Source of the DNA: a plasmid
Length of the DNA stretch: 64,000 nt
Sequence record: NZ_CP018188.1
Strand: one strand, 5' to 3'
Shown: in pieces, positions 17,047-56,486 of the stretch
How the letters are laid out: each line of letters starts with the position of its first letter
How positions within the stretch are numbered: position 1 is the first letter of the stretch
Made by a program: the position numbers and the translations under genes
Notes under the pieces: generated by a model
What the model was told of the DNA's origin: nothing
Databases searched by the model: none
What the model saw: the letters and a program-made list of their open reading frames with translations, nothing else

Positions 17047-17152
17047 AAAATATCTTGATCTATCTTAATGTTATCTTTAAGATGATAAAGTAGAATTACA
17101 TTGTAAAGAAAGGAGTAATCCTGGCTAAAAGGATTACAAGGAAATTAATGAG

Positions 17153-18061: not shown

Positions 18062-18062
18062 G

Positions 18063-18806: not shown

Positions 18807-18807
18807 A

Positions 18808-19846: not shown

Positions 19847-20140
19847 ATGAGCCAAAAATATACCAAAGAGTTCAAGGAAACAATTGTTCAATTGCATGAA
19901 GCAGGACAGCCTGTTTTAGATCTAGTCAAAGAGTACGGAGTTGCCAACCAAACTATATACAAATGGCTTCAACTATACGGGAAATCTAAAGCTGAAAATG
20001 TATCCCTTCATGAACTCCAACAAATGCGCAAAGAGATGGCACAATTTTTGATAAAATTATATCAAAGTGACGAAGTTGTTGGTTTAGTTGATGTTAAAAA
20101 CTTTGAGTTTCACCTTAGTGGGCCATTGTTTAACCATTGA
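19847..20140 (+). pseudogene. IS3-family transposase OrfA fragment (IS861/IS904-like N-terminus), remnant
   Basis: MSQKYTKEFKETIVQLHEAGQPVLDLVKEYGVANQTIYKWLQ matches the HTH of IS3 OrfA. It diverges after about 70 aa and no orfB follows. Confidence 0.6.
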
Positions 20141-24186: not shown

Positions 24187-24654
24187 TGATATTGCATGGA
24201 AATAGAAGAATGTAAGCAAATTTCAATTCTTGATGTAGCAAGTCGTTTAGGTATCTCCTTTAAACAAGTTTCTAGCAGTGTCTATGAACATCCTGAACAC
24301 GTTGAGTGTGTAGCTTTGCTTGTGCGAGCTAATTCATCAGTGAAGTAGATGTTCAGCAAATGCTATAGCTTTCGTAGACTGAGGAGATTACGACGAAATA
24401 ATACGGTAATTCCGAACCGCTGAGTGTGTAAGATTGCTTATAAAAGCGTAAAAACCTTGTAATGAATCAATAATGAAAAGCCTTGATTGTAAGGCTTTTC
24501 ATTATTGTGATAGAATATAGTTAGTTATAAATAGAGAGCCAATAAGAAGCAGTAAAAATATTATTCATTAAATAATCAAGCTAGCGTAGACGAACTGGAT
24601 AGGTTACTAGTGAAAACTGCAAGATGTGATGTGAAAAGAATCGGAGAGTGCTTG

Positions 24655-32739: not shown

Positions 32740-33873
32740 TTGCGACACCAATATAAAATAGCCTATCATGGCTTCATGGTAGAATTTAAAGATTATGAAA
32801 ATACACAAGGGCTCGAAGAGCTAGAAGGTTGGCGGTATTTTCCGATTAGAGCAGCAAATAGGATTAAGTCCTTCTGGGAGAGCAACAGCGTTCTCTCTTA
32901 CTTGAGGCGACATCGGTTAAAACGAACGATGATTATTAGTTATGCATTACTGGGAACAATGGTATGGACAGCTACATCTGCTTATTTCTCTCCAACCCGA
33001 GTTACTTACTTAGAGTCACAACTGCAGGCAACACAATCATTTGGTAATGGCCTTGGAAGTATCACAGCAACTTCTATGACTTACTCTTCGTCAAATGGAT
33101 TAGTCGTTATGGAATTGACAACATCAGATGCTACGAGTGCTATCAAAAAAGGGATTAATACTGAAAATCTTGATTGGCAGGTTTTCTTGCCAAGTAGTGT
33201 TAAGAATCCTGAAGCAGTGACCTTAGAAGTCATTCCGTTAACCGGAGATAAGGTGTATCTAGTCATGCGTAATGTGCCTTCAGATTATACGCTCATGGTT
33301 ATTCGTGCGACAAATAAGACACCGAACTCAAACAGTCTCAAGATTGACGTTCAAGAATACAATGATTACTTATCATCTAGTTCTAATGACGCTTCAGTCT
33401 CTAAGCAGAATAAACAAAAAGATAAGGAAGGGAATAAGAACTATGTTGATTTCTTTGTAACTCCTCAAAATGAACTCTTAAAAAACAAATATGTCAAGAA
33501 TTTGTCTCGTGAGAAGTTTGCCCTCAATATTTTTGAAGAGGAGTTGAAATATCAAAAAGATCAACGAAAAGAACTCTTGGCTTCTGCAAAAACACTTGAT
33601 GACAGTGTCAAGGAAGATACTAAGACATTGGAGCAGTTGAAGCGTGAGTCAGAATACTTGGTCGGTAACGAGTTAACCGATAAGCAGAGTGATATGGAAG
33701 CAATCGAGAAAAGTATGGACTCTAAAGAGAAGGACGGAGCGAAAGCGCGTGAAAATGCTGCTTATGTTCAGACAATCATTGAACAGATTGAAAAAAATAT
33801 CAAAGCAGTTAAGAATGGTACTTACAAGTTTAATTCACCAGTACGCTCAGTAAAACAAGATATTGGGGAATAA
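32740..33873 (+). CDS. Hypothetical bitopic membrane protein with extracellular domain and C-terminal coiled coil (first gene of the T4SS-like block)
   Basis: A single TM helix (MIISYALLGTMVWTATSAYF) is followed by a K/E-rich coiled-coil C-terminus. The start is ambiguous (TTG 32740 or ATG 32776). Confidence 0.4.
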   Translation: MRHQYKIAYHGFMVEFKDYENTQGLEELEGWRYFPIRAANRIKSFWESNSVLSYLRRHRLKRTMIISYALLGTMVWTATSAYFSPTRVTYLESQLQATQSFGNGLGSITATSMTYSSSNGLVVMELTTSDATSAIKKGINTENLDWQVFLPSSVKNPEAVTLEVIPLTGDKVYLVMRNVPSDYTLMVIRATNKTPNSNSLKIDVQEYNDYLSSSSNDASVSKQNKQKDKEGNKNYVDFFVTPQNELLKNKYVKNLSREKFALNIFEEELKYQKDQRKELLASAKTLDDSVKEDTKTLEQLKRESEYLVGNELTDKQSDMEAIEKSMDSKEKDGAKARENAAYVQTIIEQIEKNIKAVKNGTYKFNSPVRSVKQDIGE

Positions 33874-33908
33874 ATATAAAAAGGAAAGAAAGGACTTTAT
33901 TAACGATT

Positions 33909-34307
33909 ATGACAATTGACGAACAACGCTATTTACTTAACCAGGACTGCCTATTGATGAAATATCAGCGAGGTAACGCTATGAATGAACCCCTTCAAAT
34001 TTTTAGAGGGAAATGGGCAGACGGTTTAGAACGCCTACATCAAATCATTGATAAAGAAGTTGGTTGGAAGAACTTTCGTAGTTTTGTCTCAAGTAACGTA
34101 CATCATGACTCTGAAACATCCATTGAGGTAGTTAAGACACACTTAAACCAATGCCGTACTGAATGTACGGACCTTTTGGATATTGATTTTGGAGAGAAAG
34201 GTTCTATTTGTATTCAGAGGGATCAAGTGGAGCTTTTGACTGAGAAATTCCGTTATTTCCTTTATTTTGAAAGTAATATTCAACCAATGATGGATATTGA
34301 CTTCTAG
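33909..34307 (+). CDS. Hypothetical protein (132 aa)
   Basis: ORF with consistent codon usage inside the operon. No recognisable motif. Confidence 0.4.
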   Translation: MTIDEQRYLLNQDCLLMKYQRGNAMNEPLQIFRGKWADGLERLHQIIDKEVGWKNFRSFVSSNVHHDSETSIEVVKTHLNQCRTECTDLLDIDFGEKGSICIQRDQVELLTEKFRYFLYFESNIQPMMDIDF

Positions 34308-34317
34308 GAGGTACTGG

Positions 34318-34719
34318 ATGAATCAAGAAGAAAACCAACAACAAGAGGGGAACTGGGGACTGCCTCGTGGTCTTTACACGCAGGTAAAGTACTACGGTGT
34401 TCCGGTAATGAAAGCCTTCATTATAGTAGGGAGTTTTGTTTTTCCGCTACAATTCAGGGATATATTTTTCCCTAGAGGGCAGGAGTTGAAGTTCCTAATC
34501 AATTTACTCTGTACAATGACTTTAACGATTTATTGGATGATCCCTTCTTCGTCTGGTGGAAATAAGTTCTGGGAATTTATTCATGCTCACCGTCGGACAA
34601 AGAAACGTTATTATCCAATTGATAAGAACTGTTACCCAGAGTTGAGAGATGATGGCTCGAAAAACCGTCGCTACTTAATGGATAAGGCTGCAGAACGTTT
34701 AGGAAGGAAGTATAAATAG
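34318..34719 (+). CDS. Small two-TM membrane protein (possible VirB3-like component)
   Basis: GGAGG RBS before ATG 34318. Two hydrophobic helices. Its size and topology resemble the VirB3/PrgI-like proteins of Gram-positive T4SS. Confidence 0.35.
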   Translation: MNQEENQQQEGNWGLPRGLYTQVKYYGVPVMKAFIIVGSFVFPLQFRDIFFPRGQELKFLINLLCTMTLTIYWMIPSSSGGNKFWEFIHAHRRTKKRYYPIDKNCYPELRDDGSKNRRYLMDKAAERLGRKYK

Positions 34720-36663
34720 ATGAAGGAGAGGACTAACCATAATCTTAGTAAGACTCCTTATATTGACAAATACACAACAGACCTTACTGAGAAAATCAGA
34801 CCCAAGCGTCAAGATTTTGTGGCTTGGGGTAGACAAGATGAAATCAGACAAGTCTTTATCTCACTGAATCGATTAGAAAAAAACTCTCCTGTACTAATTG
34901 GTGAAGCTGGTGTAGGTAAAACAGCTATTGTAGAAGGAATTTGTGCGGATATTCTTAACAATAAAGCCCACGTCCCAACACGTTTCCAAGGTAAGCAGGT
35001 TAAGCAACTAGAATTATCTGCTATCCAAGGGAAAGAATTTGACCATACAGGTAAAGAGGTGAACATCATTGCCAAAATGGACGGATTGATTAAAGAGTTT
35101 ATGGCTCATAAAGATGAGTTTATCCTCTTTATTGATGAAGTGCATACCATTATGGGTACTGGGGTTGAGGGAAGTGCTCTTGACGTCGCTAATAGCTTGA
35201 AACCAGCCTTATCTCGTGGGGAAATCTATCTTATTTCAGCCACTACAGCTGATGAGTTTATGATTATCGAACGAGATCCAGCGATGGAACGACGTCTGCA
35301 ACCAGTTTACGTTGATGAACTGGACAAAGAGGCATCTATTTTGGTCTTGAAAAAACGTCGTCCCAAGTATAAACGAGAACTTGATATTGAGATTCCTACT
35401 GATGCCATTAAGGCAGCAGTAGAATTATCTATTCGTTATGTCACGGATAAAATGCTTCCTGATAAAGCTATTGATATTATTGATGAAGCTTCAGCGACTG
35501 CAAATATTGATGGGAAATCAGAGATTACCTTAAGAGATATTGCGAATGTCATTCACCGTAAAAAAGGTATTCCAATGGAAAGTCTCCTACGCACGTCCTC
35601 AACTCCAGTGGATTTTGCGGAAGGGATGCGTGCTGTTGTTAAGGGGCAAGACCATGTGATTCGAACTATAGCACGCCTTATGTATAAAGGTATCCAGGGT
35701 GGGCAGAACAAGCGAAGACCTCTAGGAACTCTTCTTCTACTTGGAACAACAGGTACAGGTAAAACTGAATTGGCGAAACAAGCAGCAAAACAACTGTTTG
35801 GTAGTGAAGAAGCGATGATTCGGCTGGATATGTCAGAATACATGACTGATAATGCTGTTGTTCGTCTTATAGGAAATGACGAGCGAAAAGGTGATTTAAC
35901 TGAAAAAATTAAGAAGAATCCCTATTCGTTAGTACTATTGGACGAGTTAGAAAAGGCTCATCCAGATGTCTGGGCTTTATATTTGCAAATGCTTGATGAC
36001 GGGCATTTAACTGACGGACGTGGACGAAAAATCAATTTTAAGAATACGTTTATCATTGCGACATCAAACGTGGGGCATAAGCGAATCAAAGATAAATATA
36101 TCACTTCTGGTCAAACCTTTACAGAAATGAACAAGACTGACTATAAAGAGTTCATGAAGGACATGAGAGACGAGTTAATCAAGATCTTTAAACGTCCTGA
36201 ATTTATCAACCGCTGGAAAATTGAAGTGACTAATATCTTGACGAAACAAACCATTGATAAGATTGTCTATTCAAAAATGGCTGTACATGAGAGCAGTTGG
36301 TTTAAAGAGCATCATATCCTTATTAATTATGAGGATGTTATGGATGGTGACCAAACTATCGATGGCAAAAAATACTTCTATGAATATCTCAGTAGTGTCG
36401 GTGTTAGCCCAGAAGATGGAGCAAGGCCTTTAGAAAGAACTATTGATGAAGTGTTAACTGATGAAATCTTTGAGCAATTGTATTTCCTTGGGCGAAAGCC
36501 ACAAGATTACTTTATGGTTGATGTCTCACTATATGGACATGCACCAGGAACATTTGCGTATGGGAACTCAGGTAGAAAGACAGTTCAAGATAGGCGTCAG
36601 ACACATATTAGTGTCAAACGGATACCTCCAGAGGAGTATGCGAACTATTTGCTTACGTCTTAA
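34720..36663 (+). CDS. Clp/Hsp100-family double-AAA+ ATPase lacking N-domain and M-domain (ClpB/ClpV-like)
   Basis: D1 has Walker A GEAGVGKTA, Walker B FIDEVH, and LKPALSRGEIYLISATT ... ERRLQPV ... LPDKAIDIIDEA. D2 has GTTGTGKTELAK, LLDELEKAHPDVWALYLQMLDDGHLTDGRGRKINFKNTFIIATSNVG. Both modules align collinearly with ClpB D1 and D2. No coiled-coil middle domain is present. Confidence 0.8.
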   Translation: MKERTNHNLSKTPYIDKYTTDLTEKIRPKRQDFVAWGRQDEIRQVFISLNRLEKNSPVLIGEAGVGKTAIVEGICADILNNKAHVPTRFQGKQVKQLELSAIQGKEFDHTGKEVNIIAKMDGLIKEFMAHKDEFILFIDEVHTIMGTGVEGSALDVANSLKPALSRGEIYLISATTADEFMIIERDPAMERRLQPVYVDELDKEASILVLKKRRPKYKRELDIEIPTDAIKAAVELSIRYVTDKMLPDKAIDIIDEASATANIDGKSEITLRDIANVIHRKKGIPMESLLRTSSTPVDFAEGMRAVVKGQDHVIRTIARLMYKGIQGGQNKRRPLGTLLLLGTTGTGKTELAKQAAKQLFGSEEAMIRLDMSEYMTDNAVVRLIGNDERKGDLTEKIKKNPYSLVLLDELEKAHPDVWALYLQMLDDGHLTDGRGRKINFKNTFIIATSNVGHKRIKDKYITSGQTFTEMNKTDYKEFMKDMRDELIKIFKRPEFINRWKIEVTNILTKQTIDKIVYSKMAVHESSWFKEHHILINYEDVMDGDQTIDGKKYFYEYLSSVGVSPEDGARPLERTIDEVLTDEIFEQLYFLGRKPQDYFMVDVSLYGHAPGTFAYGNSGRKTVQDRRQTHISVKRIPPEEYANYLLTS

Positions 36664-36736
36664 GGGGTGTCACTAGGTTGTGACTCATAGATGGAATATT
36701 GTAGACTACAACTATTAAAATTTTAAGGAGACTGTT

Positions 36737-37087
36737 TTGAAAGAAAACACATTTTTGAACAACGTGAAGGCAAAGGCATCAACATTAGGAATGACTGCTT
36801 TATTGACGTTAAACTCTGTATCCCTTGCTTTTGCGGAGCAAACTGGAGGAAATGGGACTGTTAACCCAGCTAATGAAGCTAATAACTGGATTAATAACTT
36901 TACAGATATGCTACGTCTCTTATTCCCGGGGATAGCAGTACTAAGTGGTTTAGGGGCATGTATCTTGATGATGATGGGTGATAAGAAACGATCAGTAGCC
37001 CTTGACCGACTTATGTGGATTGCAATCGCACTATGTGCCGGTTCAGCACTCGTTTCATTTGTTGATTATCTTTGGCAACCCAAATAA
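36737..37087 (+). CDS. VirB2/TrbC-like pilin candidate
   Basis: AAGGAG RBS with TTG start. A long signal peptide ends ..SLAFA|EQ, followed by two hydrophobic helices. The size (116 aa) is typical. Confidence 0.4.
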   Translation: MKENTFLNNVKAKASTLGMTALLTLNSVSLAFAEQTGGNGTVNPANEANNWINNFTDMLRLLFPGIAVLSGLGACILMMMGDKKRSVALDRLMWIAIALCAGSALVSFVDYLWQPK

Positions 37088-37107
37088 GTCTTTAAGAGGT
37101 ATACTTT

Positions 37108-38322
37108 ATGGAAAAAGAATTACTTACCATAAAGGGGAATCGCAAGGTATTGTTTCCGGATGCCTTGTTTCTTTATATCGAGTGGAAAGGAAATGCAAAT
37201 CCTAAAAAGGATGAAGAGTTAGCGGATATCATTGATGACTTAGATACTGAATATTTTCCTAGTAATAAAAAGGAAAGTATCGCACAAAGTCTCCCATTCC
37301 TAACTTTTAAACAAGCGGAATTACTTTTTCGAGAAATCAAAAAGCGTTATTCTCAGTTTACCTTGAAGGGAATTGCTCTTGCTAGTCAACCGATGGAACA
37401 AGATGGTCGTGTGACACGGCCAACTACGGGAGTCCCTAGTATTGAAGGACAACCTCAGATTACCCCTTTTGTTATTACGAAAGATTATAAGGAACTTGTT
37501 ACCCCACTCATCGAAGAAGCACACCGTGATAAACGGTTTGAGAAGACAACATATGAAGGTATCTCTAACTTTTTCAGTGGTCCAATGGGGTTACTTCCAT
37601 GTTATGCTGAAAGTCTAGGCTTGTCTCTAGTTGATATGCCACCTTATCCAAAACCAGGAACGATTGAAGGAGAACTTCCAAATCGTCTTATGTCGAATAA
37701 AGATAAGCATAAACAGTCAGTTGCTGGAGCCAAGAAACGGAAGGAGAAGACAGGCAGAGTGTATGAAGATGAGGAAGTAGGACCACCAAGTAAGTTGCCA
37801 TTGATTTTGGCTATTGGCTCTTGTACCTTGTCGGTATTCTTATTGTTGATGCTAATGGTCTATAATAGTAATTTCACGCGCGTGAAGAAAGAACTTGTAG
37901 CCACAACAGATAAGGTTGAGCGTCTTACAATGATACAAGATTATGAACATGAGATTGATGTCATGGCTCGTTATTTCTTGTCATACTATTATTCAGGAGA
38001 CAAGGATAAGCTTAAGGCTTACTTGGATAATAACGACGCTAAATTTACTAACCCAGAGGTAGCAACTGTTTCTAGCACAATGTTGGAGAAAGTTGAACTC
38101 GTTAAGAATGAGAAGGATACCTATGAGGTTACATATGTTGTTGGTACAACGGATGAGGCTCAAAAAACGACAGTTCGTCGTGTTACTTTCAATGTTAAGA
38201 AAAAACCATCAGCTACTCAAGGTTGGGTAGTTACATCTGAACCGACAACAACAGCATTTGCAACTCCAACATCTCCTTCAACTGAAACTTCAGCTGAAAA
38301 CACTGAAAACAGGGAGGGATAA
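37108..38322 (+). CDS. Bitopic membrane protein with C-terminal NTF2-like domain (VirB8/TcpC-like candidate)
   Basis: A cytoplasmic N-terminal half, one TM (LPLILAIGSCTLSVFLLLMLMVY) and a ~150-aa extracytoplasmic C-terminal domain. This matches VirB8-like topology. Confidence 0.4.
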   Translation: MEKELLTIKGNRKVLFPDALFLYIEWKGNANPKKDEELADIIDDLDTEYFPSNKKESIAQSLPFLTFKQAELLFREIKKRYSQFTLKGIALASQPMEQDGRVTRPTTGVPSIEGQPQITPFVITKDYKELVTPLIEEAHRDKRFEKTTYEGISNFFSGPMGLLPCYAESLGLSLVDMPPYPKPGTIEGELPNRLMSNKDKHKQSVAGAKKRKEKTGRVYEDEEVGPPSKLPLILAIGSCTLSVFLLLMLMVYNSNFTRVKKELVATTDKVERLTMIQDYEHEIDVMARYFLSYYYSGDKDKLKAYLDNNDAKFTNPEVATVSSTMLEKVELVKNEKDTYEVTYVVGTTDEAQKTTVRRVTFNVKKKPSATQGWVVTSEPTTTAFATPTSPSTETSAENTENREG

Positions 38323-38325
38323 CCT

Positions 38326-40569
38326 ATGGGTGCAGAAGCAACAATTGAGATTGAACAAGGGAAGGTCTGGCCATCCCTATCAGATATGATCTCTCAATCG
38401 AAAGATTGGCCTAATGAAGTTGGTTCTAAAGGTTGGGGAGGTGACAAAGATAAAGAGCTATTATTGGCATCCTTTTATGCTCAGTGGGACCAATATCTCC
38501 ACCCAACAACAGGGGTATTTATAGCTTTTGGCTTTATTCCCGAGATGCTTTCAAAAGGTATCTATAGTTTTAGTTATGCGATAGAGAAAGCATACCTCAA
38601 CATGTTTAAGTTGTTCGGGATGTTTGATTATATTAGTCAGTCTGATAGCTTTGTTGGGCAGGTTTATAAGTGGCTTCAAATCGTTGGGATTTCATTATTT
38701 GTTCTGGTAACGCTCATTCGTCTTATAATGGCAATGGCAGGAGCACCTTTCAGGTATCGAGAATTCTTCAATCATATGATTCTGGTAACTTTCTCTGTTG
38801 CTTCACTTCCAGTGTTTGCTTCAAAATTTGGTAGTGCCATAGCGAAGGATACCGTAGGACTAGCCTATTATGACATAACTGGCAGTGGTCAGAGTGTTTC
38901 ACTTTCTGTGACACCATTTCGAAGTAACACAGTTGACCTTGAAATGCTGTATGCAATGGATTTTGATGCAGATAAGTTGGGCTATAATAAAGATACTCAT
39001 TTTATAGCTGGTGATAAAAACTGGAATTCTATTTCAGATGGTAACATTTGGTTCACTAATTTTACTGAAACCTATGGTCCAACCAATAAGGCAATGCTTC
39101 AGTACTATTCTGGACGTGAAGGACGAGTATCGTCGATAGCCAAATTCGTAGGAGTGCGAGAAGACGGTTCGGTTGACTGGGGACAACAAGTAAAAAATGG
39201 TATAGCCTTATCTAACCCGATAACTGCTCTTCTTCAAACCAGTAAAATATTTTTTACTGGTTGGAAAGAGGAATCGGAGTGGAAAGATAATCAAGAAAAA
39301 TCACCCTATAATGGTTTCTCTGATGTAATGAGATCCACGCTTAACACCATTCGTTATGCAGATGGTAAAATTGCTTATGCACGAGTTACCACTTCAAAAT
39401 CAGGTTATTTCCTTGGTTTTGATAATACTGCTTTCTTACCAACTTATGCCCGCTATAAAGTTGACTGGATAGCTCTGATCACTCAGCAAATTATTCTTTT
39501 ACTTTTGCTTATCGGATTGCTGGTAACTACGGTACGAATGATTTTCAAAACACTTATAACAGTGATTATTTCACCACTAGTTTCATACTCGGCTGTTGGA
39601 AATAGTATGCGTATCCTAGAGGTTTGGCAAGAAGTTATGACAGGAATTGCTGCCATCTGGTTCCAACTATTATTCGTAAAAATAGCACAATGGTTCTTAA
39701 TTACTTATAGTGAAGTGAAGCTCAATCTAGGTTCTGGAGCATCTGATGTTGCTAAGAAAACTCTGGGTGGAAGTTTCTATGATGGCTTAGATCCATTCCA
39801 ACATGCCATTGCGACGATTGCTGTTTACCTTGGTGTTTATCTTGCAGTTTCTCAAGGATCAAAAATTTTGGAACGCTGGCTAGGTATTGATACTAACCTT
39901 TCAAGTGGAACTAAGACTGGAGTTGCTACAATGGCTGTTGGTGCGATGGCTGCTAGTAAAATGGGTGGTGGTGCTAGAAACTTTGCTGTTGGTAAGTATA
40001 ATCCAACTACTGGAAGACGAAATCAAAGTGGCTTTAACCGTCTCAGAAATAGTGTTAGTAGTGGAACCAAAGTTGGTGTTAAGGGACTTAGGAGTGCTGG
40101 TAGCGTGGTAGGTTCGACCACAAATGGTATCAGACGAGGTGCCTTAACTGCTGCTGGTGCTACTGCTGGTACTGTAGCAGGTACTTGGAATGCAATGGCT
40201 GATAGAAGAGCTCATGGTCTTAAGTATAGAGAGATTGTTGGTCAGTCAATGAGTGCTACTGGACGCAATATGTTTAAAGGATTCAAAGACACTATTAAAT
40301 CTGGTAAAGAAGTTGTTAGCAATGAATTCAGGAATGCTGGTCAATCTATTAAGAGAGACTTCTCAAGCAGTTTCGGAGAAGGCTACACAAGTTCTAGAGA
40401 TAATGTCAGAGATAAAATCTTAAATAATACTGGTGGAGCAGGACGAATAACTCCAAAAGGGGATACTTCAAATATTACTCCTCCAACACAAAGCTTACCA
40501 AAGAAAAATAGCTTAGATAGTGATAGTCGATTCCAGAAATTTGATGCTGGAGAAGACGGTGAGTTGTGA
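38326..40569 (+). CDS. VirB6-like polytopic membrane protein (PrgH/TcpH/Tn916-Orf15-like), Gly/Ser-rich C-terminal tail
   Basis: 747 aa. Multiple TM helices in two clusters are separated by a large extracytoplasmic loop. The size and topology resemble Gram-positive VirB6 analogues. Confidence 0.5.
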   Translation: MGAEATIEIEQGKVWPSLSDMISQSKDWPNEVGSKGWGGDKDKELLLASFYAQWDQYLHPTTGVFIAFGFIPEMLSKGIYSFSYAIEKAYLNMFKLFGMFDYISQSDSFVGQVYKWLQIVGISLFVLVTLIRLIMAMAGAPFRYREFFNHMILVTFSVASLPVFASKFGSAIAKDTVGLAYYDITGSGQSVSLSVTPFRSNTVDLEMLYAMDFDADKLGYNKDTHFIAGDKNWNSISDGNIWFTNFTETYGPTNKAMLQYYSGREGRVSSIAKFVGVREDGSVDWGQQVKNGIALSNPITALLQTSKIFFTGWKEESEWKDNQEKSPYNGFSDVMRSTLNTIRYADGKIAYARVTTSKSGYFLGFDNTAFLPTYARYKVDWIALITQQIILLLLLIGLLVTTVRMIFKTLITVIISPLVSYSAVGNSMRILEVWQEVMTGIAAIWFQLLFVKIAQWFLITYSEVKLNLGSGASDVAKKTLGGSFYDGLDPFQHAIATIAVYLGVYLAVSQGSKILERWLGIDTNLSSGTKTGVATMAVGAMAASKMGGGARNFAVGKYNPTTGRRNQSGFNRLRNSVSSGTKVGVKGLRSAGSVVGSTTNGIRRGALTAAGATAGTVAGTWNAMADRRAHGLKYREIVGQSMSATGRNMFKGFKDTIKSGKEVVSNEFRNAGQSIKRDFSSSFGEGYTSSRDNVRDKILNNTGGAGRITPKGDTSNITPPTQSLPKKNSLDSDSRFQKFDAGEDGEL

Positions 40570-40580
40570 TAATAGTCTCA

Positions 40581-40612
40581 AAAAAACAAGCCTTGTGGCT
40601 TGTTTTTTATTT
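40581..40612. terminator. Bidirectional terminator between convergent genes
   Basis: AAAAAAACAAGCC-ttgt-GGCTTGTTTTTTAT. Confidence 0.55.
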
Positions 40613-40969
40613 CTTAACTAAAAATAAGAGGAAGAAAGGATTAAAGAGACTGATGATGAATAGGATAATACCACAGATTATTACTAAACCAAATACTGGG
40701 AAAAAGAAACTAGAAACAGCACCTACTAGGATTCCTATTGAATGGATGATGCCATGAAGTGTCATGAATAGACAAAATAGAGCAAACATTCCAGTAAGAG
40801 ACAACGAAAATTTAAACCAAATTGTTTCAGCAGCCTCACTTATCGTAGAAAAAAGAAGCGTAAGCAAGAAGCAAGCGATACCAATAAGTACTGAAAAAAG
40901 TAACCATTTTAATGAGGTCCAAGTGCTTATATATAGTGAAAAATAAAAATCTTGTAAAAAGTCTAGCAT
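40607..40969 (-). CDS. Small polytopic membrane protein (120 aa), opposite strand inside the block
   Basis: AGGAGGG RBS before ATG 40969. 3-4 hydrophobic helices. Confidence 0.5.
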   Translation of the reverse strand: MLDFLQDFYFSLYISTWTSLKWLLFSVLIGIACFLLTLLFSTISEAAETIWFKFSLSLTGMFALFCLFMTLHGIIHSIGILVGAVSSFFFPVFGLVIICGIILFIISLFNPFFLLFLVKK

Positions 40970-41176
40970 CCTAAAACCCTCCTAAAAAGATTATTGCGAT
41001 TGTATTTATTTGATTGTAACAGTTTTTTAGTAGCTAGACAAGGACAGAGAGCCCTAAATGGAAGGCGATTGTCAAAAACATGGAGAAGTAGGAGTAGCTA
41101 ATGGGTGTCACTGGGTTACGAACGTCCCATACCGTTTTGTAGAATAGGGAAGAATAATATTTATGGAGGAAATGAT

Positions 41177-41992
41177 ATGCCGGGTTTAATTGAAGAACCA
41201 GTATTGTCAAAAAAAGAGATTAAGAAACGAAAAAAAGAAGAGGCACGGAAAAGAAAACAAGAGAAGAAGAAGGAAAAGCAAACACAATTTGAAAGTATAG
41301 ACCTTGGTGAACGTGCCGGAGAAGAGTTTGTGTATGTCCCGCTCAATAAGAAAAAACGTAGAGATTTTTTAGACACTGTTGCGATTGCTGACGTGAAGTC
41401 TATTCTATATGGCTATCCTAATCAACCGATACGATTAGCTAATGGCTATTCAGGTTATGTGCAGATTTTTGAGGTGTTTGGGCAAGATATTCAAGCGATG
41501 TCTAATGAAGAACAAGCAGCTGTTAAGGTAGGCTTCACTCTTTTTCTGTCTGGTACTACCTTTGACATGATGCTTCAGACAACGAAATTACCAACAGATG
41601 TTTCAAGCCAATCTAACGAATTCCTACGTCTGCTGGATGAAGTCAAGCAAGAGCAGAATGCTCCAGAATTGATTATCAATGATGGCGATGATCTTGACAC
41701 AATTGCAAATAAAGAGAGACTTATTTATCAACTCAGGCAACGAGAAGATATTTTGAAAACAAAATATCTCGTACAACAAGTCGTTGCAATCAACCAACAA
41801 AATATCGAGTTCTTTATCTGGGTGTTTGGAGACACTCTGGCTGAAATAGATTCCAATACTCGTACCACCTTAACAATTGCTTCGAGCCACGGATTTGCCC
41901 CTAAAGTTGTATCTGTCGAAAAGAAGGAAGAGTTATTGACTCAATATTACAACTTTAATGATTCACTTAATGGTTCCCCTAACCAGTACTAG
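41177..41992 (+). CDS. Hypothetical protein with Lys/Glu-rich N-terminus
   Basis: GGAGGA RBS before ATG 41177. Highly charged N-terminal KKEIKKRKKEEARKRKQEKKKEK. Confidence 0.45.
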   Translation: MPGLIEEPVLSKKEIKKRKKEEARKRKQEKKKEKQTQFESIDLGERAGEEFVYVPLNKKKRRDFLDTVAIADVKSILYGYPNQPIRLANGYSGYVQIFEVFGQDIQAMSNEEQAAVKVGFTLFLSGTTFDMMLQTTKLPTDVSSQSNEFLRLLDEVKQEQNAPELIINDGDDLDTIANKERLIYQLRQREDILKTKYLVQQVVAINQQNIEFFIWVFGDTLAEIDSNTRTTLTIASSHGFAPKVVSVEKKEELLTQYYNFNDSLNGSPNQY

Positions 41993-42003
41993 AAGGAGTT
42001 TAC

Positions 42004-43965
42004 ATGGATTTAAGTTCACGAAAAATCAAGAAATATATTCGAGAGGGTTATGACCTCAATCTTATTAGTAGGATTCAAAGTGATATTCCAGATTTTAAAT
42101 ATGATGATAGATATTGGAGACAAGCAAATGGTTATTATAAGATTGCTCATGTTCCATATGACAGATATCCAGCACACGGTTTACCTGACTTTTGGATGAG
42201 TGATTTAATGCTCGTTGATAATGTAATCAGTTTTATGTCCTTAGAACATACTTTAAATAATGAAATGTCCGACTTAGCTTCAAAAGCTATTTCGAATATG
42301 TTAGCAACGCAAAATACAAAGGCTGCACAAGATGCAGATGATAAGAAGCGTATTGGTTCTTTATTAGGCTATCGCGAAAAACTTGATAATAATATTCCTT
42401 CTAAAAAAATCCACACTCGCTTTTTGTTAGCGGCAAACACATTGAATGAACTGGTAGAACGAGAAGCTGATCTGAAGCAACAGTTGAATCAGTATTCGAT
42501 TTCTTCTTCTGATGGCATGCAAGACGTCGAATATCATACAGCTTTTATTCCAGCTTCTCGATTGGAAGATACCCCACTACGTCGAAAAGGGCAAGCTGCA
42601 TCCGCCTGGGATTTAGGTGCTGGCTATCCTTTTAACCATACAAACTTAATGGATACCTATGGTGTTTACTTGGGTGAAACACGTACCGGTGGAGTAGTAA
42701 ACTTTGACCTTTTGCATGAAGATAGGGAACGTAAAATTCCTACAATGATGATTGCCGGAGCAGGTAATGGAAAAATGAAGTTGTTAGGTAATTTGATTGA
42801 TACCTATTTTGCTAAAGGACATACCATTTTTAACATTGATCTTACTGGTCACTTAAAAGACCTTACGGAACTTCAAGGTGGTCGATATGTTAAGATGTCT
42901 GGTACTAATAATCGAAATCATATTAACCTCATGCAAATTATTGCGACGGCTTCCTCTGCAGATGGAGAAACAACGGACCAGGTCCAGTCTTTCTATGCCC
43001 ACCGTAATAAACTACGTGCTTTAGCTCAAATTCTTGATCCAGGGTTAAAGAACTCTGACCTCAATAATTTGTCATCTGCTTTAAACGACTTTTATGAAGA
43101 CCGTAGTCTGTGGAACCGTAATGCAGAAGTCATGGACCAAGAAGACTTAACGATTACGAATGTTATTCCAGAAGATTATCCTACTCTATCTCATTGGGTA
43201 GAACGCTTAAACAAGCTTAAAGAGGACAAAATCGCAGAGGGGAATGAAATTGATGCTGCAAGTTATGACCGTCTCTTTAATGCTTTCTCTGGTCTATTGG
43301 GGGATTATCGCTTCTTAAATGCGACCTCACAGTTTGAAGATTTCTCAAATGAACAAGTTGTGACCTTTGACCTCTCTGGGATACAAGATACTGAACTTCT
43401 TAATATTCAGCTTTACCAAGTGTTATCTATCATTTCATCATACGCTGTAGCAAATGGAAGAAGGGTCTCTGAGTATTTCCGTAGAGGGATTATCGGGGGA
43501 GATAAGAGCCAACGACCTCATAGCATTATTACCATTAACGGAGCACATAAGCTCTTCAATTATCGTTATTCAGAGTCTCTTAACTTTCTAAAGGATTTGA
43601 TTGAGAATGTAAGTAGTAACTATTCTGCATTTATTATGGAAATGAGTTCGTTAGATAACATCCTCTTGAATGCAAACTCTACGGACGCAGTGGATTACGT
43701 TTTAGCGACACGCGCAATTTTCTCTATGATGACGTATCGTGTCTTTTCTCAATTAGGTGATTTGACTATCCCTCGTCTAGCAGATGCTTTACAAGGGGAA
43801 ATGACCGAGAGTGAACTTTCGTCACTTAAATATTTAAGAGATGGTGATTTCTTCCTAAATATTGCTTCTGTCAAGAACTTAGTCTTTAATCATCAGCTAG
43901 CGGATAATAGGTCTTATGGGAAGTATCCGTATGATGAACATGTTCGCTATGCATTCTTACCTTAG
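42004..43965 (+). CDS. VirB4-like ATPase candidate with non-canonical Walker A (GAGNGKM)
   Basis: 653 aa. P-loop-like IPTMMIAGAGNGKMKLLGNLI is followed by a DLTGH motif. The size and position are typical of T4SS VirB4/TrsE/PrgJ. The Walker A Ser/Thr is replaced by Met. Confidence 0.45.
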   Translation: MDLSSRKIKKYIREGYDLNLISRIQSDIPDFKYDDRYWRQANGYYKIAHVPYDRYPAHGLPDFWMSDLMLVDNVISFMSLEHTLNNEMSDLASKAISNMLATQNTKAAQDADDKKRIGSLLGYREKLDNNIPSKKIHTRFLLAANTLNELVEREADLKQQLNQYSISSSDGMQDVEYHTAFIPASRLEDTPLRRKGQAASAWDLGAGYPFNHTNLMDTYGVYLGETRTGGVVNFDLLHEDRERKIPTMMIAGAGNGKMKLLGNLIDTYFAKGHTIFNIDLTGHLKDLTELQGGRYVKMSGTNNRNHINLMQIIATASSADGETTDQVQSFYAHRNKLRALAQILDPGLKNSDLNNLSSALNDFYEDRSLWNRNAEVMDQEDLTITNVIPEDYPTLSHWVERLNKLKEDKIAEGNEIDAASYDRLFNAFSGLLGDYRFLNATSQFEDFSNEQVVTFDLSGIQDTELLNIQLYQVLSIISSYAVANGRRVSEYFRRGIIGGDKSQRPHSIITINGAHKLFNYRYSESLNFLKDLIENVSSNYSAFIMEMSSLDNILLNANSTDAVDYVLATRAIFSMMTYRVFSQLGDLTIPRLADALQGEMTESELSSLKYLRDGDFFLNIASVKNLVFNHQLADNRSYGKYPYDEHVRYAFLP

Positions 43966-43987
43966 AAATGGTGAAAGGGGAAATACA

Positions 43988-44293
43988 ATGAACCTACAGC
44001 AACCATATTCTGATGAGGCATTCCAACTACAAACTAAAATTCTGACAGAGGATAATCCGCATGATTTGGAAAGAATTGTAAATGATTACTTAGAGATCTT
44101 GGCTTACAAAAAGACCTGTCGTGTTGTTGATATTACTTATCAGATGCGAAAAACACATCTTTTAAGTAGTTTATGTGGCTTATTTGGAAGTCAGCAAGTG
44201 GATGAGTACTCAGCCATGATTATCTACCAAGAACCTGCTCGATTTGATTCGAGAATATTTGAAACAGAAGAAGTACCAGAGGAGGAAAATTAA
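43988..44293 (+). CDS. Hypothetical protein (101 aa)
   Basis: GAAAGGGG RBS before ATG 43988. Acidic C-terminus. Confidence 0.4.
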   Translation: MNLQQPYSDEAFQLQTKILTEDNPHDLERIVNDYLEILAYKKTCRVVDITYQMRKTHLLSSLCGLFGSQQVDEYSAMIIYQEPARFDSRIFETEEVPEEEN

Positions 44294-44296
44294 TCA

Positions 44297-44995
44297 ATGA
44301 CCACACTAATGCAACTGTCACTATGGGTTAACAATATATCTTATGACATTAAGACACTACGTTTCTTTAGGATAGTCTCCTTTATTATTAGTTTAGTTCT
44401 TGGTTTGGTTGGTTTCTATAGCTATCTCATGCTCTATCAGACACTTTTATTCGCCTACGGTGTTCATTTTATGGCTATTGCCTATACACCATATGTGTTT
44501 TGTGCCTTGACTGTAGCCCTTTATCAGCTACTTACTGGTAAGAGACGTGAACGTATCAAGAAAGCAAAGCATATTCTTATGTTTAGTCTTCTTCCTATTT
44601 GTTTGATGAACACCTGGGGCTTTATCACGCTAGTGACTTGGGGGCTTGCATGGGTTATGGCTAAACTAGAATATAACCATAGAAAACGAGCTGTTAAGGT
44701 CGTATCATTCTTCTCAAAGGAATATTCACCTCTTTTTGAAAAAAGATTGGCCAATCGAAGTAACTATTATGCTTATCAATCTGCTTATCGTCTCCTAGAC
44801 TTGATTCAGGTATCAGCTTATGAAGAACTCTTTAAGGAAGAAGTGACGGAAAAAGATTATAAAGCTGGTCTCGTTGTTAAGGAGTTACACCGTACTTTTA
44901 AAATCAAAGGTGTACCTTTTTCTAAGGTAACAGTAACAGATAAACTCTATATTGCTCCACAAAAAATGCCTATTATTGGCTTAAGGAGGTTTTGA
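44297..44995 (+). CDS. Membrane protein (232 aa)
   Basis: GAGGAGG RBS. 4 N-terminal hydrophobic helices. Confidence 0.45.
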   Translation: MTTLMQLSLWVNNISYDIKTLRFFRIVSFIISLVLGLVGFYSYLMLYQTLLFAYGVHFMAIAYTPYVFCALTVALYQLLTGKRRERIKKAKHILMFSLLPICLMNTWGFITLVTWGLAWVMAKLEYNHRKRAVKVVSFFSKEYSPLFEKRLANRSNYYAYQSAYRLLDLIQVSAYEELFKEEVTEKDYKAGLVVKELHRTFKIKGVPFSKVTVTDKLYIAPQKMPIIGLRRF

Positions 44996-44998
44996 TAT

Positions 44999-45421
44999 AT
45001 GGTATCTTATCGTTTTAAACGAGATGGTCAGTATATTCAGCGTGAACTAGAGCTAGATTCTCCTAATGATTATCAAGACCAAGGCTATCCGGAAAACCTC
45101 GAAGAGCAAGTAGATTATTCAGCGTTTTACGATACCTATTATGACGGTTTTGATGAGGACAGTATTTCACGTGAGCAAGAGAAAAAACAAGGTCTCATTG
45201 CGCGTGGGAAAGAAAGGTTATCCAGTGTCAAGGAGGATGTGACAGACTATTATAATTTGCAAGTGGAACGTCACAAAGACTATTACTCAGATGAAGATTC
45301 ATTTTGGATGCGAAAGCAACAACAAAAACGAAATCGAAAATTCATTAAACAAAGTATCTTTCTTGCCCTAGGACTTTTACTTGTATTTGGTTGGTATTGG
45401 CTAACCGCACTACTTCATTAA
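44999..45421 (+). CDS. Hypothetical protein with C-terminal TM anchor (140 aa)
   Basis: AAGGAGG RBS. Acidic N-terminus and a C-terminal helix (IFLALGLLLVFGWYWL). Confidence 0.4.
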   Translation: MVSYRFKRDGQYIQRELELDSPNDYQDQGYPENLEEQVDYSAFYDTYYDGFDEDSISREQEKKQGLIARGKERLSSVKEDVTDYYNLQVERHKDYYSDEDSFWMRKQQQKRNRKFIKQSIFLALGLLLVFGWYWLTALLH

Positions 45422-45438
45422 GGGGGTGACTAAGATAT

Positions 45439-47481
45439 TTGAAACGAATAGGTGATAAAGCTGCTCGTGTTCTTCTAACGATTTTTGGAGTGAAGACAAC
45501 CATTATTATAGGAACTATTTTAACTTTTGCGGTTATCTTAATTGCAATTATTACTGGTTTGATGGGCACGATTAGTACTTCAGGAGGAAATTCTGGAAAG
45601 ACTAACGCTCAATGTGTGACCTACCAAAAAGATGGCGATGAAGACGATGATGAAGAAGACGATGATGAAGGCTCTAAGCCTCAATCGACTTCTACTAAAA
45701 CTGACTCATCATCTGCAGGCGACTCTGATCCTTTTACGAAGGGAACAAAAGCTTATGAGAATGCCCACAAAGTCTTTATGGCTTTTGTGAATTCGGGAAT
45801 GTCCGGGGAATCTGCTGCAGGTGCAGTTGGTTGGGCAAACTCTGAAGGGAGCTATGATATCATTGGACGTGCCCAAGGGCATTATGGTAATGGTATCAAT
45901 GATTCCATTTCTAAAGGAGCTGTTCCAACGACAGGTGGTACATCAAATACGCTTGGGGGTGGTGGAATTTTCCAGTTTGACCCCTACACTAAATATGCAC
46001 CTCTTAATAGTCCTGATTGGGAAGATGCTGATAAGATGGTTGCCTTTGTTATCGATGCCATCTCAAAAGGTGACTGGAATCCAGCCTATGATGAATCTGG
46101 CCATAACTGGACATTTCAGGAGTTTGCCAAACAAACCAATATCGATGAAACGGCTATGTCATGGAATGCCTACGAACGAGGCAATATGGCTTATGTCAGA
46201 CCAGAGCAGAAGAAGGCGGATGCAAGGAAGTTTGCGGAAGTCTTTGAAGCAAGCAAGTATAAGTACGATGATGCCAAGTTCCAAAAAGCTTTTGGAGGTA
46301 GCGGTGCTTCTTCCAATAACTCCTCGTCAAGTAGTCAAAGTTCAGATGATGATGACGGTGACGACGATGAAGAAGATAGCGAGAACGAAGACGATGAGAG
46401 CGATAGCAGTTCATCAAGTGACTCTAGCAACAAAGATAGTAAAAAAGACAGTGACAAGGACAAAAAATCTATTGATACTGACAAAGCTATCAAGTGGTAT
46501 AAGGATAAGCTAGGCAAGGTCAAGTATTCTCGTGATGCTCGTACTGGACCAGATAGCTACGACCATTCATCTGCTCTTTACTATGCTCTTGTTGACGGAG
46601 GTGCTAAAGAATCTGGATCTCCAGTAGATACCGATTCAGAACACGACTGGTTGAAAGACAATGGTTATGAATTGGTGTATGAGGGAGCGTGGTCGTCCAA
46701 AGATGATGTTCAAAACCGTGAAAAAGGAGATGTCATTATCTGGGGTACGAAAGGAAGTAGCTCCGGAGATAAAGGACAGACCATGCTAGTTGAGGATAAG
46801 GAGAATATTATCCAATGTTCCCCTTCAAGAGATGGGATTGCTGAGAATAATTATGGCCAATATCGAGACCGTATTACTATGGACTACGGAAAAGTCTATG
46901 TCTATCGTCCGAAAGACAAGAAGGATAAGGATGATGACAAGGAAGAAGTAGATGCAGATACGTGTGGTGACAGCGATAGTAGTAATCTCAGCACTGATAC
47001 TGGTCAGCCACTTGATGTTCCTTATACCATTACCCAACTTTTCGGTGCAGCAGCTAATGCAGGTGGTCCAAATGCGGGTTCAGGACACACAGGAATGGAC
47101 CTTGCAGCACCAGAAGGCTCTCCAATTTATGCCGTAACAGACGGTGAAGTAGTAGAGGTCAATGAAGAGGCGATGAATATCGACGGTAACCACGTGATGC
47201 ACACTCTTCCAGATGGCACTATTATCTATTATGGACATATGCGTGATGTTCCTCTTGTTAAGAAAGGGGATAAGGTCAAAAAAGGCCAACTTATCGGATA
47301 TGTTGGACAAACGGGTGCAGCTACTGGGCCACATATTCACTTTGAACGTCGGAAAACGAAAGTCTTTCAGTACGGTGATTTCTTGAGTCCAGCATCAATT
47401 ATTTTAGGAGATACCCAACCACAAGTTGGTATGGTGATTGATCCTAAAACACAAAAAGGTGGAGCACCATCTAAAGAATAG
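45439..47481 (+). CDS. Multi-domain T4SS-type cell-wall hydrolase (PrgK/CwlT-like)
   Basis: N-terminal TM anchor, two acidic low-complexity linkers, a lysozyme/SLT-like region, an NlpC/P60-like segment with the Cys position replaced (SYDHSSALYY), and a C-terminal M23 peptidase. The M23 zinc motifs are intact (HTGMDLAAPEGSPIYA ... GHM ... GPHIHFE). AAGGGGGTG RBS with TTG start. Confidence 0.75.
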   Translation: MKRIGDKAARVLLTIFGVKTTIIIGTILTFAVILIAIITGLMGTISTSGGNSGKTNAQCVTYQKDGDEDDDEEDDDEGSKPQSTSTKTDSSSAGDSDPFTKGTKAYENAHKVFMAFVNSGMSGESAAGAVGWANSEGSYDIIGRAQGHYGNGINDSISKGAVPTTGGTSNTLGGGGIFQFDPYTKYAPLNSPDWEDADKMVAFVIDAISKGDWNPAYDESGHNWTFQEFAKQTNIDETAMSWNAYERGNMAYVRPEQKKADARKFAEVFEASKYKYDDAKFQKAFGGSGASSNNSSSSSQSSDDDDGDDDEEDSENEDDESDSSSSSDSSNKDSKKDSDKDKKSIDTDKAIKWYKDKLGKVKYSRDARTGPDSYDHSSALYYALVDGGAKESGSPVDTDSEHDWLKDNGYELVYEGAWSSKDDVQNREKGDVIIWGTKGSSSGDKGQTMLVEDKENIIQCSPSRDGIAENNYGQYRDRITMDYGKVYVYRPKDKKDKDDDKEEVDADTCGDSDSSNLSTDTGQPLDVPYTITQLFGAAANAGGPNAGSGHTGMDLAAPEGSPIYAVTDGEVVEVNEEAMNIDGNHVMHTLPDGTIIYYGHMRDVPLVKKGDKVKKGQLIGYVGQTGAATGPHIHFERRKTKVFQYGDFLSPASIILGDTQPQVGMVIDPKTQKGGAPSKE

Positions 47482-56454: not shown

Positions 56455-56486
56455 CATCAGCTAAGTTTGATATAGAAAGGACACGT

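Follow-up and report, generated by a model that had tools for sequence, protein, structure and literature searches.

A block of tightly packed genes at positions 32740-47481 of a 64,000-nucleotide stretch of plasmid DNA (sequence record NZ_CP018188.1; the whole stretch is called the window here) encodes a type IV secretion system (T4SS) in which a Clp-like double-ring ATPase is found together with a VirB4 protein that has lost its Walker motifs. We consider it probable, with a likelihood of roughly three in four, that this block is the mating-pair-formation module of a conjugative Streptococcus salivarius bacteriocin megaplasmid and that the Clp-like ring is an integral component of it. Conjugation as such is a known kind of system; what appears to be new is the association of the Clp-like protein with a dead VirB4.

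The block comprises 14 open reading frames (ORFs) on the plus strand plus one conserved antisense ORF, which together with a terminator-like hairpin splits it into two transcription units. A first-pass annotation, made from the sequence alone, had described about 15 co-directional genes; the ORFs that it named lie on the plus strand where it had placed them and the tight co-directional packing stands, but the true arrangement is 14 genes in two units with the antisense ORF between them. Its view of the block as T4SS-like also held, given the family matches of the pilin, the TcpC/VirB8-like and VirB6-like proteins, VirB4, and the hydrolase. With VirB6-like, VirB8/TcpC-like, and cell wall hydrolase genes together in one block, the parts list is, as judged from these families, that of a Gram-positive mating channel, and the ratio of nonsynonymous to synonymous substitutions (dN/dS) was 0.05-0.15 across all genes tested.

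The Clp-like protein (34720-36663) matches the Pfam families AAA, AAA_lid_9, AAA_2 (1e-48), and ClpB_D2-small, and its NCBIfam matches include ClpB (6e-137), ClpV1 (5e-121), and ClpA (6e-118), all scoring far below the family cut-offs (458 against 1232 for the ClpB model TIGR03346 and 406 against 885 for the ClpV model TIGR03345). ClpB and ClpC are also the best sequence and fold matches in the PDB (33-36% identity), and the AlphaFold2 (AF2) model (pLDDT 83.7), for which ClpC and ClpB are the nearest folds, carries an extra C-terminal β-hairpin and helix at residues ∼597-646. Both nucleotide-binding sites are intact, with the motifs GEAGVGKT/FIDEVH in one module and GTTGTGKT/LLDELEKA in the other, and the Walker A and B motifs, the ERR arginine fingers, the TSN of sensor 1, and the GARP of sensor 2 are invariant in 17 aligned sequences. 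By its two AAA+ modules, Walker motifs, arginine fingers, and sensor 2, the protein has the two-ring make-up of a class I Hsp100 ATPase.

The accessory elements of such proteins are missing. The alignment to ClpB (1qvr) begins at residue 143 and skips residues ∼404-501, so that the N-domain and the M-domain are absent; the protein starts at the D1 module, and a ∼60-residue M-domain/linker is lacking. The D2 pore loop (GSPPGYVGYEEGG in ClpC; GYVG) is deleted, the KYRGEFE loop of D1 is replaced by a variable segment without a conserved aromatic residue, and the VGF/IGF loop for ClpP is absent, the region reading KYITSGQTF. These losses characterize the family, as KYRG, GYVG, and xGF are all missing from 94 of 95 homologues shorter than 700 amino acids (aa); two Walker A motifs are present in 95/95 of these short homologues and two Walker B motifs in 93/95. 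Among 20 longer Clp proteins the canonical motifs are found in 17-19, xGF being present in 17 of them. Compared with pSAL813, an S. salivarius megaplasmid, the gene has a dN/dS of 0.08. The Clp-like protein is a conserved and selected component, and from its motifs we infer an ATP-hydrolyzing double ring without the canonical threading apparatus.

With ClpC, ClpB, and ClpV the protein therefore shares two AAA+ modules, Walker A and B, arginine fingers, sensor 2, and the D2-small domain, and it differs from all of them in having no N- or M-domain, no ClpP loop, a deleted GYVG in D2, a degraded KYRG in D1, and an additional C terminus. Assignment as a ClpB/Hsp104 disaggregase was ruled out by the missing N- and M-domains, the loss of the pore-loop tyrosines, and the TIGR03346 score; as ClpV/TssH by the missing N-domain, the TIGR03345 score, and neighbors that belong to a T4SS rather than to a type VI secretion system (T6SS); and as a ClpP partner of the ClpA, ClpC, or ClpE type by the missing (I/V/L)GF loop and N-terminal adaptor-binding domain. 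The first-pass annotation had called the protein ClpV-like, and it was right about the two AAA+ modules, the absence of N- and M-domains, and the location in the operon; a ClpV-like unfoldase it is not, because the ClpP loop and both pore loops are gone as well and there is no T6SS context.

VirB4 serves as a universal marker for all T4SSs and conjugation systems and is presumed to be their motor. In the block, the 653-aa protein encoded at 42004-43965 matches VirB4_plasma of NCBIfam (2e-35) and P-loop_TraG of Pfam (2e-7), and by Foldseek the best PDB match of its AF2 model (pLDDT 70, core >85) is VirB4 of T. pseudethanolicus (4ag5; E 4.5e-16), with TrwK, the VirB4 of R388, in second place (2e-11), so the earlier identification as VirB4-like is borne out. 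What had been taken for a single ORF is only the C-terminal part (VirB4C), the N-terminal domain being encoded separately at 41105-41992 (VirB4N; homologues carry PF26593, TraC-like). The same split is known from pLS20, where genes 51 and 52 encode the two parts (PMC8557374).

Where VirB4 proteins have a Walker A of the form GxxGxGK(S/T) and a Walker B of the form hhhhDEAW, the 653-aa protein has AGAGNGKM and IITINGAH, and the AF2 model puts these degenerate motifs at the expected strand-loop-helix and strand end. Among the 150 best homologues from a search of 1.84 billion representatives, both motifs are canonical in 128, more distant ones included, and both are lost in the 19 that are closest to the window protein (for example GRDRTDKD/TVTGAE, APKMYQKK/NISSAQ, and NPKMGQRS/NISEAQ). 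A neighbor-joining tree of the 70 best-scoring representatives unites these 19, the window protein included, in one exclusive and mostly streptococcal clade, and all full-length VirB4C proteins from genomic loci of the clade show the same loss. As the Ser/Thr of Walker A and the Asp-Glu of Walker B are gone (in sister clades the Lys too), VirB4C is predicted to be unable to hydrolyze ATP. The gene nevertheless has its full length in all cases and evolves under purifying selection (dN/dS 0.085), which indicates a conserved pseudo-ATPase and not a pseudogene, and we predict that the protein is kept as a structural hub. The likeness to canonical VirB4 (4ag5; TrwK of R388) extends to the fold, a homologue of the N-terminal domain, and the position of the gene before the hydrolase in the operon; the differences are the GKM of Walker A, the replacement of Asp-Glu in Walker B by Asn-Gly (Thr-Gly is also seen), and the N-domain as a separate polypeptide.

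A Clp gene is present in every dead-VirB4 lineage whose upstream region was visible, one of these lineages (group 2 below) being represented by two metagenomic contigs. It is also present on pMP118 of Ligilactobacillus salivarius UCC118, where VirB4 is canonical (GNAGMGKST, NIDEVEN), and this rules out the simple idea that the Clp protein arose to compensate for a dead VirB4. Rather, live-VirB4 sisters of the pMP118 type suggest that the lineage acquired the Clp gene before VirB4 decayed.

The module is not confined to S. salivarius. Several other elements show the same order of genes around a Clp-like homologue (585-690 aa, 38-74% identity), among them S. agalactiae and S. sanguinis-like contigs; an L. 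mucosae integrative and conjugative element (ICE) has the module with an integrase, a topoisomerase, and a canonical VirD4 inside the operon, and both pMP118 and L. plantarum Lp16G (with a MobP2 relaxase) carry the Clp-like gene in their transfer regions. Other Clp-carrying elements have topoisomerase, primase, and polyvalent proteins, and the transfer regions of distant relatives contain topoisomerase genes and usually Toprim/primase or SSB genes too. Across streptococcal ICEs, megaplasmids, and lactobacillus plasmids the order is fixed: topoisomerase, 0-2 short ORFs, Clp, and then the pilin, either directly or after one small ORF. A tblastn search with the L. mucosae Clp-like protein gave 145 plasmid records at E < 1e-60, ordinary Clp proteins included; the top matches listed were Lactobacillaceae plasmids, and the counts per organism include ten Streptococcus records.

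Scanning genomes with a VirB4C profile built from an alignment of the Walker-less clade gave 36 loci, nearly all from Streptococcus, which fall into two groups. Group 1 is window-like, with the order A377, DUF5592, Clp, pilin, TcpC, VirB6, VirB4N, VirB4C, 232-aa protein, ∼130-aa protein, and hydrolase. Group 2 has a canonical VirD4 of ∼1046 aa before VirB6, and its order is MobL relaxase, polyvalent protein, topoisomerase, Clp-like protein, TrbC pilin, TcpC, LPXTG protein, SSB, VirD4, DUF8208, DUF5592, TraC-like protein, and VirB4C; no Clp gene was found within 10 kb upstream of VirB4C, and it lies further upstream, past the LPXTG gene, as placed by two metagenomic contigs. At their end, next to a chromosomal gene, the elements of group 2 carry a PF06782 DDE transposase. 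A coupling protein of ∼1045 aa and a PF06782 transposase are the published signature of the ConjTnGBS1 superfamily, and transconjugants of both TnGBS1 and TnGBS2 are mentioned in the same paper (PMC4701971); by this signature group 2 would belong to the TnGBS1 family. The ICEs with this signature, which lie on chromosomes of more than 12 Streptococcus species (loci L021-L045, L052, and L053), have VirB4 proteins in which the Walker A Lys is replaced by Gln (GNPKMGQRS) and the Walker B Asp by Ser (NISEAQ), and they encode a BRCT-domain protein of 94-96 aa between VirB6 and DUF5592. In more than 15 Streptococcus species, with protein identities of 35-55%, the ORFs are full-length and their order is kept. 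Genes for short Clp-like ATPases of this type thus do occur near VirB4 or VirB6 genes elsewhere, in streptococcal and lactobacillus elements, and the first-pass claim that no Gram-positive conjugation system employs a Clp-type ATPase has to be given up, as the Clp-like gene is common in conjugative elements of the Lactobacillales.

The gene that precedes clp offers a further connection to the channel. The 140-aa ORF stops at 34719 and clp starts at 34720, and in hhalign the set of proteins from this upstream position matched the DUF5592 set from between VirB6 and VirB4 with a probability of 99.5% (E 6e-23); relatives annotate a 133-aa product for this type of gene. DUF5592 is the small membrane protein encoded between VirB6 and VirB4N, the VirB3 position, in pLS20-type, pMP118, and group 2 systems, and in the window lineage its gene has been relocated to the upstream side of clp. 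This relocation is a hint that the Clp ring and the membrane complex may be physically linked.

In agreement with the first-pass annotation, domain scans of every sizeable ORF found no relaxase or type IV coupling protein (T4CP) domain in the 64-kb window, and when the T4CP and relaxase candidates of relatives were used as tblastn queries, nothing in it matched. The block is 94-95% identical in nucleotide sequence, over its full length, to S. salivarius megaplasmids (pSAL813, the ATCC 25975 plasmid, and others), and eight streptococcal plasmids carry it wholly or partly. On the ATCC 25975 plasmid a 422-aa protein annotated as a "replication-relaxation family protein" is encoded in the orientation of the block, ∼20 kb upstream of it, and the adjoining gene encodes a 942-aa protein with N-terminal hydrophobic segments, a Walker A motif (GLIGTGKS), and a DPTNPG motif. 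This 5-kb pair is conserved at 95-100% nucleotide identity in all eight of the block-bearing streptococcal plasmids, 20-50 kb from the block. PF13814 proteins, the family matched by the 422-aa protein, are treated as relaxases of streptococcal integrative and mobilizable elements (PMC7563491); a search of the larger hypothetical proteins that the ATCC 25975 plasmid encodes gave no further relaxase. An oral-metagenome relative encodes a 926-aa protein with weak TraG-D_C and TraD matches, to which the 942-aa protein is 39% identical over 812 residues; against the L. mucosae VirD4, BLASTP aligned no more than a short stretch at Walker A, without significance. We regard the 942-aa protein as a putative divergent T4CP.

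The same plasmids encode a topoisomerase, a Sec10/PgrA surface exclusion protein, PcfJ, a VirB11-like ATPase, ssb/ERF, and an anti-CRISPR gene, and the gene outfit of the relatives is typical of a conjugative plasmid. The VirB11-like T2SSE ATPase of the ATCC 25975 plasmid (locus L002, 44030-45286; Pfam 3e-35) lies next to AcrIIA9-family anti-CRISPR and PcfJ genes in a second transfer-related region. Synteny of the family backbone is kept on both flanks of the window: 5123-8967 is the ASCH/Paratox end of an ssb-ERF "leading-like" region ∼24 kb upstream of the block, and the two genes at the 3′ end of the window (63149-64000) are the ones found before the topoisomerase gene on the ATCC 25975 plasmid. 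By this synteny, the topoisomerase and the T4CP/relaxase pair should lie immediately beyond the window. In vitro, the megaplasmids of strains K12 and M18 have been passed from one strain to another, the products being called "transconjugants" by the authors (PMC3681767).

In the mechanism that we favor, a relaxase would nick the plasmid and a coupling ATPase would pass the single-stranded DNA to the channel, both being encoded outside the window and represented in the sequenced relatives by the PF13814 protein and the divergent VirD4-like 942-aa protein. The VirB4 C-domain, catalytically inactive, would be kept as the structural hub of the inner-membrane complex, and the Clp-derived double ring would be an integral ATP-consuming component of this T4SS lineage, as suggested by the intactness of both rings, the co-transcription of the gene, its abutment on the VirB3-like gene, and its position before the pilin gene. 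Most likely the ring remodels or energizes channel or pilin assembly at the cytoplasmic face; with pore loops, N- and M-domains, and ClpP loop lost, it is unlikely to act on secreted proteins as an unfoldase of the ClpB or ClpV kind. More speculatively, it might dock at the channel base and supply the energy for assembly or pilin handling that VirB4 no longer gives, for which the T4CP candidate and the VirB11-like ATPase would be alternative sources.

Several points weigh against this account. The role of the Clp-like protein is read from gene order, conservation, and motif content, and the window VirB4 retains its P-loop lysine, so that nucleotide binding may still be possible. The PF13814 match of the 422-aa protein spans 38 aa and, at 25.6 bits, only marginally exceeds the cut-off of 25.3; no family matches the 942-aa protein directly, and its hhalign result against canonical T4CPs is weak (E 0.0016, probability 16%); and for the plasmid of the window itself the presence of the pair is deduced from its conservation in the family. 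MOB-suite typed 8/8 relatives as non-mobilizable, and the transfer experiments with the K12 and M18 megaplasmids left the mechanism unestablished, the word conjugation being absent from that paper (PMC3681767).

The first-pass annotation had proposed instead a T4SS-derived machine for protein secretion or a surface structure, moving no DNA, in which the Clp protein unfolds or recycles substrates like ClpV. The lack of a relaxase or T4CP in the window, the missing M-domain, and the MOB-suite typing would all fit, yet we give this very little credence: a T4CP-like/relaxase-like pair is conserved in the eight relatives, no candidate effector genes were seen, topoisomerase, SSB, primase, and surface exclusion genes surround the module, and the Clp protein has neither unfolding pore loops nor a ClpV N-domain and scores at less than half of the ClpV1 cut-off (406 against 885). 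In ICEs and lactobacillus plasmids the module is accompanied by a canonical VirD4 and by relaxases of the MobL or MobP2 type, and protein secretion is thus left unsupported. That the block is a decaying, non-functional remnant on plasmids that are inherited only vertically is improbable. The lost Walker motifs, the non-mobilizable typing, and the relatives in which the halves are separated or the first unit is missing (pSsal-YU10) speak for decay; they are countered by purifying selection (dN/dS 0.05-0.15 overall, 0.085 for VirB4C, and 0.08 for clp), by the full-length ORFs and order kept in more than 15 Streptococcus species, by the ancient and monophyletic origin of the dead-motif state, by the same dead motifs in loci with the signature of TnGBS1, a family that gives transconjugants (PMC4701971), and by the reported in vitro transfer of megaplasmids (PMC3681767). 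The Clp gene could also be a passenger, a stress chaperone like the plasmid-borne heat-resistance disaggregases ClpL, ClpK, and ClpG; such plasmid-borne ATPases are well known from the literature, and there are sub-threshold NCBIfam matches to ClpK and ClpG. Against this, the elements for disaggregation (N-domain, M-domain, and pore-loop tyrosines) are all missing, the position between topoisomerase and pilin is fixed over 38-74% identity, and the gene abuts that of the DUF5592 protein, so that a passenger role seems highly improbable.

Two further proposals concern the task of the ring within a conjugation system. Relaxases are reported to need unfolding for T4SS transit, and the ring might be a substrate unfoldase that works through non-canonical pore residues, either for relaxase passage or for extraction of the pilin from the membrane. 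Its two intact ATPase rings and the location of its gene between DNA-processing genes (topoisomerase and primase) and the pilin gene would suit such a function; the deleted GYVG loop of D2, the absence of a conserved aromatic residue from the D1 loop across the family, and the lack of an adaptor or N-domain for substrate recognition do not, and we see it as a minor possibility. Somewhat less doubtful, but still tentative, is the proposal that in one mostly streptococcal lineage VirB4 became a pseudo-ATPase and a pore-loop-less, ClpC-derived ring took over its energizing role. The features of the block are collected in Table 1.

Table 1. Features of the block at 32740-47481, with coordinates in the window and the basis of each assignment
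Feature	Coordinates	Strand	Basis and remarks
First module gene, 377 aa (probably ∼365 aa)	32740..33873	+	One hydrophobic segment, coiled-coil-rich C terminus; ORF call
132-aa soluble protein	33909..34307	+	Seen only in S. salivarius-type copies; 98% identical in locus L013
DUF5592-family small protein with two transmembrane (TM) helices, 140 aa	34297..34719	+	Profile comparison and TM prediction
ClpC/ClpB-derived double AAA+ ATPase, 647 aa	34720..36663	+	Pfam, NCBIfam, and PDB matches, motif alignment, AF2
VirB2/TrbC-like pilin	36737..37087	+	Signal-like N terminus and two TM helices; Pfam T4SS_pilin 9e-5
TcpC/VirB8-like bitopic protein	37108..38322	+	Cytoplasmic N-domain, TM at 228-254, NTF2-like C-domain
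VirB6-like polytopic channel protein (pLS20_p028/DUF8208 family)	38326..40569	+	NCBIfam NF045890 5e-43
Bidirectional terminator-like hairpin	40581..40608	.	12-bp stem between A and T runs
Antisense 120-aa ORF	40607..40969	-	72-93% identity in loci L013-L015
VirB4 N-terminal domain as separate protein (TraC-like)	41105..41992	+	NCBIfam VirB4_plasma, model positions 126-280, 9e-6
VirB4 C-terminal (ATPase-fold) protein, 653 aa	42004..43965	+	VirB4_plasma, model positions 305-882, 2e-35
Small soluble protein, 101-125 aa by start codon	43916..44293	+	ORF call
232-aa protein with three N-terminal TM helices	44297..44995	+	TM prediction
140-aa acidic protein with C-terminal TM anchor	44999..45421	+	TM prediction; conserved in relatives
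Membrane-anchored three-domain peptidoglycan hydrolase, VirB1/PrgK/TraG analogue	45439..47481	+	TM at 9-50

Some of these assignments gain from homologues. The pilin match is below the gathering score, and homologues match TrbC/T4SS_pilin; the pSAL813 copy is named "TrbC/VirB2 family" by PGAP. Likewise, the TcpC-like_C match of the TcpC/VirB8-like protein is weak (Pfam, 6.5e-4) and becomes stronger in its homologues, and the VirB6-like protein also matches TM families of mycoplasma ICEs in NCBIfam and has homologues that carry DUF8208. The hydrolase matches Phage_lysozyme2 (2.5e-16), Amidase_5 (1.8e-36), and Peptidase_M23 (2.4e-27) in Pfam and M23 endopeptidases in NCBIfam. For the small ORFs (132, 125, 232, 140, and 377 aa and the antisense ORF of 120 aa) Pfam and NCBIfam gave no families. 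The 377-aa protein has homologues with 36-40% identity at the same place upstream of the Clp gene in three loci (L007, L016, and L020), and the 232-aa protein is kept directly after VirB4 in all group 1 relatives, with 30-38% identical homologues in loci L005-L020. The antisense ORF ends at the terminator-like hairpin; at its position the S. agalactiae and S. sanguinis-like loci have minus-strand ORFs as well (146 and 149 aa), and the antisense product may be a regulator or an exclusion/immunity factor.

Outside the block, too, the window is pieced together from sequences of the S. salivarius megaplasmid family. At the junction between the transcription units, ∼40.6 kb, relatives carry cargo insertions, and this boundary appears to be a cargo insertion point: pSsal-YU10 (locus L055, 603-12363) has a streptin-type lantibiotic cluster there, with no first unit (Clp to VirB6) detectable by megablast, and three other plasmids match the block at two separate places, so that the halves are probably separated. 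Cargo and defense islands (a lantibiotic cluster, GmrSD, and type I restriction-modification) lie on both sides of the block. The type 2 lantibiotic locus at 11415-19542, with minus-strand regulators at 9078-11202, is 99.2% identical to pSsal-YU10 and encodes two near-identical 49-aa precursors (…GNGVFKTISHECHLNTWAFLATCCS), a third precursor of 52 aa, LanM, a C39-ABC exporter, and immunity ABC genes; the 49-aa precursors resemble SA-FF22, macedocin, and salivaricin G32. Upstream of the block (29256-31028) lies the gene for GmrSD, a type IV restriction enzyme, and downstream of it (52607-59609) a complete type I restriction-modification system (hsdM, hsdS, and hsdR), followed on the minus strand of the plasmid backbone by the gene for a protein of 747 aa in which choline-binding repeats occur at least seven times (59689-61932; Pfam 1e-71). 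The cargo further includes a pair of IS3-family transposase genes, a fragment of an HTH transposase, and a gene of the aminoglycoside phosphotransferase family (6985-8624, 19847-20140, and 24610-25530). A tRNA scan of the window found none and so gives no clue to an integration site.

The DNA and its annotation are already public, with the Clp-like gene labeled "ATP-dependent Clp protease ATP-binding subunit" and many of the others "hypothetical protein." Ambroset et al. (2016) called PF12846 of all surveyed ICE VirB4 proteins the "catalytic domain" (PMC4701971). Targeted full-text searches, and papers on pLS20, on the classification of streptococcal ICEs, and on T4SS classes, yielded no description of a Clp-type component in Gram-positive T4SSs, nor of a VirB4 without Walker motifs, and the searches gave no paper on the T4SS of the megaplasmids either, although papers in subscription journals may hold such descriptions. 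Should the ring indeed have taken over from VirB4, this would be the first T4SS class with a Clp-type motor and would change the understanding of energy coupling in Gram-positive conjugation. The Walker-less VirB4 clade is widespread and selected, occurring in oral and gut streptococci, including bacteriocin megaplasmids of probiotic S. salivarius and TnGBS1-like ICEs, and it may help to explain why typing tools such as MOB-suite call these transmissible plasmids non-mobilizable. An Hsp100 subfamily that keeps its ATPase motifs without a threading apparatus bears on how AAA+ rings work, and the system is directly testable by genetics.

Among known conjugation systems, ConjTnGBS1 (PMC4701971) shares with the block the pilin, the TcpC-like protein, the VirB6-like protein (DUF8208), the TraC-like VirB4N, VirB4C, and the hydrolase, and a DUF5592 protein is present. 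Loci of this type also share the Clp-like gene upstream of the pilin and the degenerate VirB4C (∼35% identity). The window system, in contrast, is carried by a plasmid; its operon lacks a canonical VirD4, the divergent 942-aa candidate being encoded elsewhere in relatives, DUF5592 stands upstream of clp, an antisense ORF and a terminator lie between VirB6 and VirB4N, and the relaxase candidate is a PF13814 protein instead of MobL. The pLS20 family of Bacillus plasmids (Val-Calvo et al. 2021, PMC8557374) has in common with the block an extended VirB6, a small protein with two TM helices, a VirB8-like NTF2 protein, a VirB1-like hydrolase, and a VirB4 that is likewise split (∼200 and ∼630 aa), and a VirB11-like ATPase is found both there and in the S. 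salivarius plasmid family; its description mentions no Clp or AAA+ gene, has pLS20 lacking a VirB2 homologue, and places VirD4 beside VirB6. In pMP118, Lp16G, and the L. mucosae ICE a topoisomerase lies upstream of a short Clp-like gene (39-44% identity), with short ORFs between the two (and a toprim gene in Lp16G), and a small pilin-like ORF follows. From there pMP118 and the L. mucosae ICE continue with VirD4, a pLS20_p028-type VirB6, DUF5592, and a TraC-like protein, and pMP118 then with VirB4C and a lysozyme. These Lactobacillaceae elements have a soluble 139-144-aa protein just upstream of Clp and not DUF5592, and pMP118 differs from the window further in the canonical Walker motifs of its VirB4C and the canonical VirD4 in its operon. 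Taken together, gene content and order place the block in the pLS20/pMP118/TnGBS1-like lineage of Gram-positive conjugation systems.

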